Assembly (NCBI RefSeq): GCF_056746865.1
Contig: NZ_CM163382.1
Length of the DNA: 64,000 nucleotides
Direction: 5' to 3' (one strand)
This document shows, in pieces, positions 58,641 through 61,026 of the stretch. Position 1 is the stretch's first letter; each line of letters begins with the position of its first letter. The notes beneath the pieces were generated by a model. That model did not search any database. It saw only the letters and a program-made list of their open reading frames with translations, and had not been told where the DNA came from. A program made the translations under genes and the position numbers.

Positions 58641-59504
58641 TCACAAATATAGCGCCGGAAATATTAACCGGCTCACCCCGCGCACCTTTAACGCATCAGC
58701 CAATGGCTCAACGTCTTCCGGCGTGGCACTCGGCCAGCTTTGCGCCTCGCCATACACGCCGTGGGCATGAAACGCGTTCAGGCGTACCGGAACATCGCCA
58801 AGTCCCTTGATAAACGCCGCCAGCTCATCGATGTGTTGCAAATAATCCACCTGGCCTGGGATTACCAGCAAACGCAGTTCCGCCAGCTTGCCGCGCTCGG
58901 CAAGCAAACAGATGCTGCGCTTAATCTGCTGATTATCGCGTCCGGTTAATTGCTGATGACATTCGCTCCCCCACGCTTTGAGATCGAGCATTGCGCCGTC
59001 GCACACCGGGAGTAATTTTTCCCAGCCGGTTTCGCTCAACATACCGTTACTGTCCACCAGACAGGTGAGATGGCACAGTTGCGGATCGTTTTTGATGGCA
59101 GTAAACAACGCCACCACAAACGGCAGCTGGGTCGTGGCTTCGCCGCCGCTTACCGTTATCCCTTCAATAAACAGCACCGCTTTGCGGATATGGCTAAGCA
59201 CCTCGTCCACGCTCATGGATTGCGCCATCGGCGTGGCATGTTGTGGACACATCTTCAGGCAGGTATCACATTGCTCGCAAACCACAGCGTTCCACACCAC
59301 TTTGCCGTTAACAATCTGCAACGCCTGATGCGGACACTGCGGCACGCACTCTCCGCAGTCATTGCAGCGTCCCATCGTCCACGGATTGTGACAGTTTTTG
59401 CAGCGCAGATTGCAGCCCTGCAAAAACAGAGCCAGACGACTGCCTGGCCCGTCAACGCAGGAGAAGGGGATAATCTTACTGACTAAAGCGCATCTGCTGT
59501 TCAT
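58641..59504 (-). CDS. yjjW: YjjW, glycyl-radical enzyme activating protein (radical SAM)
   Basis: 287 aa with radical-SAM CxxxCxxC (CNLRCKNC) and additional ferredoxin-like Cys clusters. Confidence 0.85.
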
Positions 59505-61026
59505 GGCTTATCACGCGCGGCTGGCGTTCCAGAATACGAGTGTTGCGTGCGGCTTCTTCTCCCAGCCAGGTGGTGTTGGTGCGTGAACCTTCGGCGCGAT
59601 ATTTTTCTAAATCCGACAAACGCACCATATAACCGGTAACGCGAACCAGATCGTTACCGCTGACATTGGCGGTAAATTCACGCATTCCGGCTTTAAAGGC
59701 ACCGAGGCAAAGCTGTACCAGTGCCTGCGGGTTACGTTTGATGGTTTCGTCGAGCGTCAGAATGTCGCTGATGCCGGAATAATAATAAGCATGATGCGGG
59801 GCGACAGTTTGCAGATGAGTAATCGGATCTGGCTCATCACCATACGGCAAACGCGCGCCCGGCGTGGTGCCGATATCAGAACTGATCCCCGACTGTGCGT
59901 GTAACATGGCGCGTTTTTGCCAGCCATATTTCACGGGGGTATTGGCGACAAACTCCGCCAGTTGTGCGCTGATGCGATAACCCACTTCATTTGCGGCGGC
60001 TTCTTTACCGTAGCGCGCGGCAATCCCATCTTTCTCGCACAGCAAGTTAACTGCTTCCGCCAGCCCATACATGCCAAACATTGGCACAAAACGTTCAGGG
60101 TTAATCAGCCCTTCTTTCACCAGGAAGCTATTCTCAAAGAAGTGTGATTGTTGATAGAGGAATTCACACCGCGCATCGATGATGGCGATCTGCTGCTGGC
60201 AGTAGTGCGGTAGAGTGCGCGTAAAGAAGTCATCCAGCGATTCACTGCGCTCGGCAATGGCTTTCAGGTTAAGGCGTACCAGCGTGCTGCCACCACCCGC
60301 CAGCGGCAGTGAGTTGTAACAGCTCACAATCCCGTAGCCCCCTTTTGTGAAAATTTTATCATGCACCGGACCGTTGGCGATGTGCGGTTTGCTACATTCG
60401 CAGATGTTTTTCGCCACTTCCAGCAGCAGATCATCAGGGGTGATTTCAGGATCGTAGATAAAGGTCAGGTTCGGTGAAACCTGCTTCAGCTCTGCATCTG
60501 CACGTAAGATTGCACGGGTGATGGGCGAATCAGACGGGCCGATATTGGCGTGCATAAAGGCGTCTGGCAGGGTTCTGTCGAGGTAACGCCAGAAACGTTT
60601 TATTCGAATATCGATCTCGTCCTGTGTTAGAATTCTAACATACGGCTGCAACAACGCATCCAGTTGCCCCAGGTAGACCGGCATCGATGTGACCGATGGT
60701 ACGTGGTGGTAAAGAATGGTCAGCAGAGAGAGTGCATCATCAAGATCTTTCGCGCCTTCCAGCTCCAGCCATTCGGAACCGTTCGCCAGAAAACGGGCGT
60801 AATCGGGTAAGACATAGCGCGGTTTGTACGGCGCATGACCTTCAAACATATCGCAGATTACACCCTCATCCAGCGCGCGGCGGGCTTCGGCAGGAAGCTG
60901 CGGATAAGGCAGATTGTTTTCTGCTTCCAGCGCCAGAAAATGGCGCTTCTGCTCCGGGCTAAGTACCGGGCTGGTGACAATTTGCTGGCAACGTTGTTGC
61001 AGTGCAATTTCATGAGAAGTGGGCAT
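59476..61026 (-). CDS. yjjI: YjjI, glycyl-radical-enzyme-like protein of unknown substrate
   Basis: 516 aa with C-terminal glycyl-radical motif RVTGY; 29-nt overlap with downstream yjjW. Confidence 0.85.

Follow-up and report, generated by a model that had tools for sequence, protein, structure and literature searches.

Locus organization

The adjacent genes yjjI and yjjW encode a putative glycyl radical enzyme (GRE) and its radical S-adenosylmethionine (SAM) activase; to our knowledge, YjjI is the last GRE of Escherichia coli without an assigned reaction. Here we report a computational analysis of this gene pair in a stretch of 64,000 nucleotides (contig NZ_CM163382.1 of RefSeq assembly GCF_056746865.1), hereafter called the window, whose positions are used throughout unless another locus is named. 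Both genes lie on the minus strand, and their coordinates in the list of open reading frames (ORFs) agree exactly with those of an earlier interpretation made from the same letters alone (the sequence-only reading). The window is E. coli chromosome: approximately 4 kb around the pair, with the annotated genes yjjV, yjjW, yjjI and deoC, is 100% identical to several complete E. coli genomes, and 5422 of 5426 complete genomes contain at least 80% of this region. The features of the locus are as follows.

59476..61026, minus strand: yjjI coding sequence (CDS), 516 amino acids (aa), YjjI-family glycyl radical enzyme, with AlphaFold2 (AF2) model
58641..59504, minus strand: yjjW CDS, 287 aa, YjjW-family radical-SAM activase
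59476..59504, minus strand: end of yjjI overlapping the start of yjjW, 29 nt
59629..59643, minus strand: codons of R462-V-T-G465-Y466, the glycine-radical loop, from conservation and alignment to PflB RVSG734Y
60313..60324, minus strand: codons of S235-C236-Y237-N238, the putative thiyl-radical cysteine loop, from conservation and PFL alignment
59391..59414, minus strand: YjjW C31-x3-C35-x2-C38, radical-SAM cluster motif, from PF04055 match and PflA alignment
59244..59366, minus strand: insert of YjjW carrying a pair of ferredoxin-type motifs, CX2CX2CX3C(P), at residues 47-57 and 76-87
61060..61065, minus strand: predicted yjjI -10 hexamer TACAAT, with T-A-x-x-x-T invariant in 13 Enterobacterales
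61087..61100, minus strand: candidate FNR-like site CGCAT-CAGG-ATCAA, with a conserved right half-site and a published FNR peak
60625..60640, no strand: perfect DeoR operator palindrome (deo O1 / deoP1 region), inside yjjI codons 130-134
61224..61239, no strand: second DeoR operator (O2, deoP2), one mismatch
61192..61205, plus strand: deoP2 CRP site GTGATGTATATCGA in the shared yjjI-deoC control region

Homology supports both reading frames as true coding sequences rather than chance ORFs. Their 29-nt overlap, already noted in the sequence-only reading, suggests translational coupling, and the genes of YjjI and its activase also overlap in homologous loci (by 1-26 nt). The gene pair and its family assignments (PF11230/TIGR04040 and TIGR04041) are already part of public annotation; new here are the invariance of C236 and G465, the absence of subfamily features, a conserved FNR half-site and the recurrent nucleoside-gene neighbours.

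Family, predicted fold and putative radical residues of YjjI

YjjI matched the curated Pfam model PF11230 (E 3.9e-220; 731.7 bits, cutoff 23) and TIGR04040 (787 bits, cutoff 498). The RVTGY motif, which the sequence-only reading had recognized as a glycyl-radical motif in the C-terminal part, comprises residues 462-466. Its glycine, G465, was invariant among 69 YjjI homologues of less than 80% mutual identity, and loss of this residue, which had been named as an observation that would speak against a radical enzyme, was encountered in none of the homologues examined. Residues C236, R462, G83, L102, G120, D150, E305, G380, R392 and G418 were likewise invariant, and E62, R70, Y71, H159, N186, K213, S235, N238, G244, G245, R251, H376, Q378, D384 and R501 were retained in 97-99% of the homologues. 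Altogether, about 70 positions were at least 90% conserved in this set, which spans bacterial phyla and includes one archaeon. A second cysteine, C58 (60853-60855), is present in approximately 90% of the 69 homologues and is replaced by H, D or Y in several full-length members; candidate roles of this residue are acid/base, ligand or redox functions.

The AF2 model of YjjI (predicted local distance difference test 92.1, predicted template modelling score 0.91) has the fold of a ten-stranded alpha/beta glycyl-radical barrel by structure comparison, and NrdD, the class III ribonucleotide reductase (RNR), was its top structural match by two methods. A sequence search of the Protein Data Bank with YjjI alone yielded no meaningful solved structure. 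A profile of 21 diverse homologues gave weak matches to PFL-type enzymes and to NrdD (E 2e-4 to 2e-3) and aligned YGIVSC236YN of YjjI with YAIAC418C419VS of PFL. Profile-profile comparison (hhalign) with a 37-sequence YjjI profile gave a probability of 90% for E. coli NrdD (E 1.9e-6, 339 columns) and of 77% for E. coli PflB (E 2.1e-5, 389 columns covering both radical loops); the PflB alignment placed S235-C236 on C418-C419 and G465 on G734. On this evidence, YjjI is essentially a bare, minimal, NrdD-sized glycyl-radical barrel of 516 aa.

PflB and TdcE are about 240 residues longer than YjjI and possess the Cys-Cys pair needed for PFL chemistry, where YjjI has S235-C236. The missing pair argues against PFL chemistry, and PFL-like C-C cleavage was dropped as a candidate reaction for this reason. 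E. coli YjjI matched neither PF02901 nor PF01228 at E<=0.01. The earlier statement that YjjI does not resemble PFL/TdcE-type enzymes is therefore correct at the family level, with no match to the PFL Pfam models and Ser-Cys in place of Cys-Cys; YjjI is nonetheless a remote homologue of both PFL and NrdD.

The 1,2-eliminases among the GREs (glycerol and propanediol dehydratases, CutC, HypD, IslA, and PflD and YbiW of E. coli) carry a C-x-E motif, whereas YjjI has C236-Y237-N238, with N238 conserved in 99% of the 69 homologues. The eliminases and PFL-type enzymes are also larger by about 250-300 residues, and the eliminases differ in the invariant polar set, which in YjjI consists of R70, Y71, H159, N186, K213, R251, E305, H376, Q378, D384 and R392. 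The C-Y-N sequence weakens membership of YjjI in this group, although elimination by way of other residues may still occur. The substrates of PflD and YbiW are anhydrohexitol-6-phosphates (PMC12441222). By sequence and predicted fold, YjjI belongs to the glycyl radical superfamily but lacks features by which its PFL, NrdD and eliminase subfamilies are defined.

The activase YjjW

YjjW scored 398 bits against TIGR04041 (cutoff 250) and also matched Radical_SAM (PF04055) and Fer4 dicluster families, which bears out its earlier description as a radical-SAM activase with extra ferredoxin-like cysteine clusters. The cysteine motifs are C31-x3-C35-x2-C38, C47-x2-C50-x2-C53-x3-C57 and C76-x2-C79-x2-C82-x3-C86-P. 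The VDGPG sequence (residues 17-21) aligned with PflA, and the SAM-binding GGE was read from the translation; the alignment with PflA (E 4e-19) lies around the cluster loop and the SAM-binding core. The best matches were activases with two extra clusters (HypD-AE, PflC/PflE and CutD; E 1e-29 to 1e-41), whereas NrdG reached only E 1e-12 to 1e-17. YjjW shares the CX3CX2C motif, the DGPG loop, GGE and two CX2CX2CX3C motifs with the TIGR02494-type activases that carry a ferredoxin insert (PflC, CutD, HypD-AE), but scores below their equivalog cutoffs and has its own family, TIGR04041.

In nearly all of the roughly 180 loci, an activase gene adjoined that of YjjI, usually downstream and overlapping it. 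Short YjjW orthologues of only about 240-250 aa occur as well (archaeal, actinobacterial, and those of loci L145 and L166); such forms are encoded at 9557-10309 in L081, 9621-10364 in L085, 11497-12228 in L145 and 11496-12212 in L166. Where Pfam data exist for them (L081, L085), the two-ferredoxin insert is missing; not every member of the family therefore has the auxiliary clusters. In loci L183-L185, the YjjI gene (10001-11545) stands alone behind a gene for a CxxCxxCC-domain protein, with no activase or nucleoside genes within 10 kb, and its product is 75% identical to the operon-embedded protein of L179.

Gene neighbourhoods

Neighbourhoods were compared in 84 genome loci and about 100 metagenome loci, using our own ORF calls, which were clustered and named by Pfam and NCBIfam where clusters recurred; YjjI itself was mis-called in a few loci (L159-L161). 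Since the best 80 matches of a 12-sequence YjjI alignment used as search seed were all from Gammaproteobacteria, the metagenomes were scanned with an alignment of distant members, and the distant homologues in the metagenome loci share 35-57% identity. The family is common in gut Clostridia.

The neighbourhood analysis that the sequence-only reading had proposed across enterobacteria places deoD-deoB-deoA-deoC divergent from yjjI-yjjW in Enterobacteriaceae and Hafniaceae. A NupC-type transporter gene adjoins yjjW in Edwardsiella, Kluyvera and Pluralibacter, and Gilliamella carries a single-strand array deoB-deoD-nucleoside:H+ symporter (nupG)-add-CpdB-like-cdd-deoA-(UshA-like)-yjjI-yjjW. In a Lachnospiraceae/Eubacteriales clade (L162, L173, L177, L179), the pair is embedded in an operon encoding purine nucleoside phosphorylase (PNP)-Bmp (PnrA-like)-YjjI-YjjW-ATP-binding cassette (ABC) ATPase-permease-permease-DeoC-adenosine deaminase-phosphopentomutase-PNP, with gaps of 7-12 nt between the genes after the permeases. 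Other arrangements are YjjI-YjjW-NupC-PNP with an RNase T2 gene upstream (L104, L105, L170; the NupC part also in L112 and L123), YjjI-YjjW-Bmp-ABC or Bmp-ABC-YjjI-YjjW (L163, L165, L166, L180), and IU-nucleoside hydrolase-ADP-ribosylglycohydrolase-PfkB-DeoD-type PNP-sulfatase-YjjI-YjjW-major facilitator superfamily (MFS) transporter-Bmp-ABC...PNP-cytidine deaminase (L099, L101). In L095 and L096, genes for a RihA-like hydrolase and ABC permeases lie downstream of the pair.

After dereplication at 70% identity, a nucleoside-type neighbour was present within about five genes in 12 of the 33 metagenome-derived YjjI clusters. The nucleoside families accounted for 13-16% of the ORFs at positions 1-4 from YjjI, compared with 0-9% at positions 6-10; by a rough estimate, such families make up about 1% of genes.

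Several neighbours were recorded as side observations. A 511-aa Cys-type sulfatase (CSPARASILTG) is always encoded directly upstream of YjjI in L099 (3806-5341), L101 (8399-9934) and L102 (6843-8378); it belongs to a nucleoside-utilization cluster, has no signal peptide by eye, and has no obvious sulfated nucleoside substrate. DNA-glycosylase-type genes recur beside the pair, either AlkD-like (PF08713; L142-L147, L168) or HhH-GPD (L114, L166, L171, L182), and ADP-ribosylglycohydrolase-family genes occur in L095, L099 and L163; these neighbours may hint at modified nucleosides as substrates. Genes of the NAD-binding short-chain dehydrogenase/reductase (SDR)/epimerase family lie directly upstream of YjjI in the actinobacterial loci L081-L083 (about 5429-6883 in L081) and in L095 (3099-4163), and could encode partner reductases or be adjacent by chance. 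In locus L166, NrdD (114-2733; PF13597, E 2.5e-197) and an activase belonging to it are encoded a few genes ahead of Bmp-ABC-YjjI-YjjW; NrdD and YjjI thus coexist, and YjjI is no replacement for NrdD.

Transcriptional control

The yjjI operon is among those directly activated by FNR according to chromatin immunoprecipitation sequencing (ChIP-seq) and transcriptomics, with a peak at U00096.2 position 4,615,181 (PMC3688515). It is also listed as FNR-activated elsewhere (PMC2634741), and anaerobic induction of yjjI was reported for Yersinia (PMC3792023). Across these and other published data sets, yjjI and yjjW appear among the genes activated by FNR or induced under anaerobiosis. Presuming the U00096.2 length that we used for the conversion, the ChIP peak lies about 93 bp upstream of the yjjI ATG.

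The aligned upstream regions of yjjI from 13 Enterobacterales are poorly conserved apart from two blocks; upstream distances are approximate, as the ORF caller sometimes picks over-long starts. One block is the CRP/CytR region of deoP2. The other consists of GGATCAAA (61086-61093), followed 21 nt on by TACAAT/TACACT at the predicted -10 position. Its ATCAA half-site (61087-61091) is centred near -40.5 of the predicted start, which is the geometry of a class II FNR promoter; the left half-site is weak and shows no conservation. As a candidate FNR site, ATCAA fits the published ChIP peak. The region upstream of yjjI contains no full FNR palindrome, and the sole site with at most two mismatches (61192-61205) was rejected, as it is the deoP2 CRP site.

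The coding sequence of yjjI also contains a perfect DeoR operator, TGTTAGAATTCTAACA, at codons 130-134 (V-R-I-L-T), where AGA and CTA, both rare codons in E. coli, are used. From established knowledge of the deo operon, we take this palindrome to be deo O1. The one-mismatch copy O2 lies 599 bp away. The in-gene operator is kept at the same position, with 0-2 mismatches, in every enterobacterial locus in which yjjI abuts deoC, and is missing wherever the two genes are not adjacent. As the yjjI promoter is situated between both operators, inside the presumed DeoR loop, looping could also affect yjjI. CRP ChIP-seq in enterotoxigenic E. coli detected one intergenic peak and one peak inside yjjI, and the motif TGTGATGTATATCGAA was assigned to yjjI/deoC (PMC4287617).

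Proposed function and alternatives

We propose, with moderate confidence, that yjjI-yjjW is an FNR-induced radical enzyme module of anaerobic nucleoside or pentose catabolism. FNR activates transcription from a predicted class-II-type promoter just upstream of yjjI, and the two genes, which are probably coupled in translation, form a self-contained, anaerobically induced module. By analogy with the mechanism of the superfamily, reduced YjjW, which has a SAM cluster and a pair of auxiliary clusters of the ferredoxin type, would cleave SAM and abstract a hydrogen atom from G465; the resulting glycyl radical would generate a thiyl radical at C236 on the opposing finger loop, which in turn would abstract a hydrogen atom from the substrate. 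YjjI would thereby act beside nucleoside transporters and Deo enzymes. Judging from the gene neighbours across several unrelated lineages, the substrate is probably, though by no means certainly, a nucleoside or a ribosyl or pentose(-phosphate) derivative from anaerobic nucleoside catabolism. The sequence-only reading had described the reaction as uncharacterized, and the literature searched, which leaves out most subscription journals, indeed contains no reaction or substrate for YjjI; the papers on DUF3029 and yjjW in it are without functional data, and those joining GREs with nucleosides concern RNRs only.

The chemistry is the most speculative part of the proposal. Because YjjI is structurally nearest to NrdD yet lacks the reducing cysteine, the Zn ribbon and the allosteric domains, the likeliest candidate is the first half of the RNR reaction, in which hydrogen abstraction next to a hydroxyl group would lead to 1,2-elimination on the ribose ring and perhaps supply DeoC with substrate; YjjI would then be of the dehydratase or lyase type and not a complete nucleotide reductase. 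Even so, the probability of this scheme is low. Similarly doubtful is the variant in which YjjI, as a catabolic enzyme descended from RNR, carries out radical chemistry at the 2' position of free ribonucleosides or ribose phosphates, either dehydrating them to a 2-deoxy-3-keto sugar or achieving net reduction with a partner reductase or formate. RNA-derived ribose would then be converted to deoxyribosyl units, which DeoC would split into glyceraldehyde-3-phosphate and acetaldehyde; if true, this would constitute an oxygen-sensitive bypass of the pentose-phosphate pathway and a mechanistic link between ribonucleotide reductases and glycyl-radical eliminases.

A defined substrate class narrows the annotation problem of YjjI to a few experiments, and the nucleoside link across phyla, the FNR half-site promoter and the deo operator within the CDS make the question of function directly testable. 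If YjjI acts on ribosyl compounds, a radical step would be added to the textbook Deo pathway, the use of RNA-derived nucleosides by anaerobes would be explained, and a role would be found for an RNR-like barrel stripped of its reducing and allosteric apparatus.

A number of observations weigh against a role in nucleoside catabolism. About two thirds of the dereplicated lineages have no nucleoside genes nearby, among them Vibrionaceae, Shewanella, Ferrimonas, Providencia and Proteus, all with unrelated neighbours, as well as one actinobacterium and one archaeon; the neighbourhoods of P0001, P0002, P0005, P0006, P0007, P0010, P0019 and P0372 are uninformative or contrary. Nucleoside neighbours and an adjacent activase are both missing in a Lachnospiraceae lineage (L183-L185) close to the operon-bearing one. 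The enrichment of near over far positions reaches only p = 0.04 in Fisher's test, with the far positions of the same loci rather than whole genomes as background, and the adjacencies in Enterobacterales and Gilliamella may be of common ancestry. With the C-x-E signature of the known GRE eliminases missing, no known catalytic signature backs elimination. Finally, a co-expression analysis groups yjjI with narG and other genes of nitrate/nitrite respiration and predicts a role in nitrogen metabolism (PMC3228777). This co-expression and the many lineages lacking nucleoside neighbours, together with the grouping of yjjI with respiratory genes in expression studies and one locus with MFS transporter and glycerophosphodiesterase genes downstream, would fit a working GRE whose substrate is unrelated to nucleosides, for example a small anionic metabolite of anaerobic respiration or nitrogen metabolism, the nucleoside neighbours then being a product of synteny and of the general tendency of anaerobic catabolic genes to cluster. 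We consider this somewhat unlikely: in at least five different operon architectures from Gammaproteobacteria, Clostridia-type and other lineages, the pair adjoins or is embedded in operons for nucleoside transporters and Deo enzymes, and the co-expression with nar genes is accounted for by shared FNR control alone.

The resemblance to NrdD raises the question of whether YjjI is a true reductase, that is, a stripped-down relative of class III RNR that makes 2-deoxyribosyl compounds from ribonucleosides or ribose phosphates, using formate or a different donor, for DeoC cleavage or deoxynucleoside supply. The structural match and the hhalign score are in line with this, as are the weak PF13597 matches of many homologues, the recurrence nearby of DeoC, which is specific for deoxyribose-5-phosphate, and the frequent cysteine at position 58. 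However, E. coli YjjI itself matched no ATP-cone or NRDD Pfam model and gave no PF13597 match at E<=0.01; NrdD comprises 712 aa, and its ATP cone, allosteric specificity region and C-terminal Zn ribbon are all missing from YjjI, in which a single cysteine within residues 400-465 leaves no Zn-ribbon Cys4. The reducing cysteine of NrdD (C175 in E. coli) aligns to a gap beside R70-Y71; C58, the sole other frequent cysteine, does not align with it and is replaced in full-length homologues as described above. The NrdD segment expected to hold the substrate-contacting asparagine, whose position we presumed from phage T4 numbering, aligns in hhalign with G244-G245, and YjjW is far closer to PFL-type activases than to NrdG. 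An alternative RNR was consequently dropped as the primary reading, given the lack of a reducing cysteine, a Zn ribbon and the expected asparagine. Three points make full ribonucleotide reduction unlikely: YjjI lacks the reducing residues, L166 possesses a genuine NrdD-NrdG pair beside YjjI, and E. coli requires nrdDG for strict anaerobic growth despite the presence of yjjI; a reductase of any kind appears quite improbable. Least probable by far is that YjjI is inert or vestigial in E. coli and kept mainly for the deo regulatory elements in its DNA. The deoP1/O1 region and a CRP ChIP peak do lie within the CDS, but the gene is intact in 5422 of the 5426 E. coli genomes, the many conserved positions extend across bacterial phyla to an archaeon, the coupling to the activase has been retained, and FNR regulates expression.

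The yjjV-yjjW spacer

The spacer between yjjV and yjjW (58117-58637) consists of five tandem units of about 100 nt that resemble repetitive extragenic palindromic sequences/bacterial interspersed mosaic elements (REP/BIME) and share 62-97% identity. It comprises 518 bp here versus 419 bp in K-12 MG1655, and its tandem units give rise to many spurious small ORFs.

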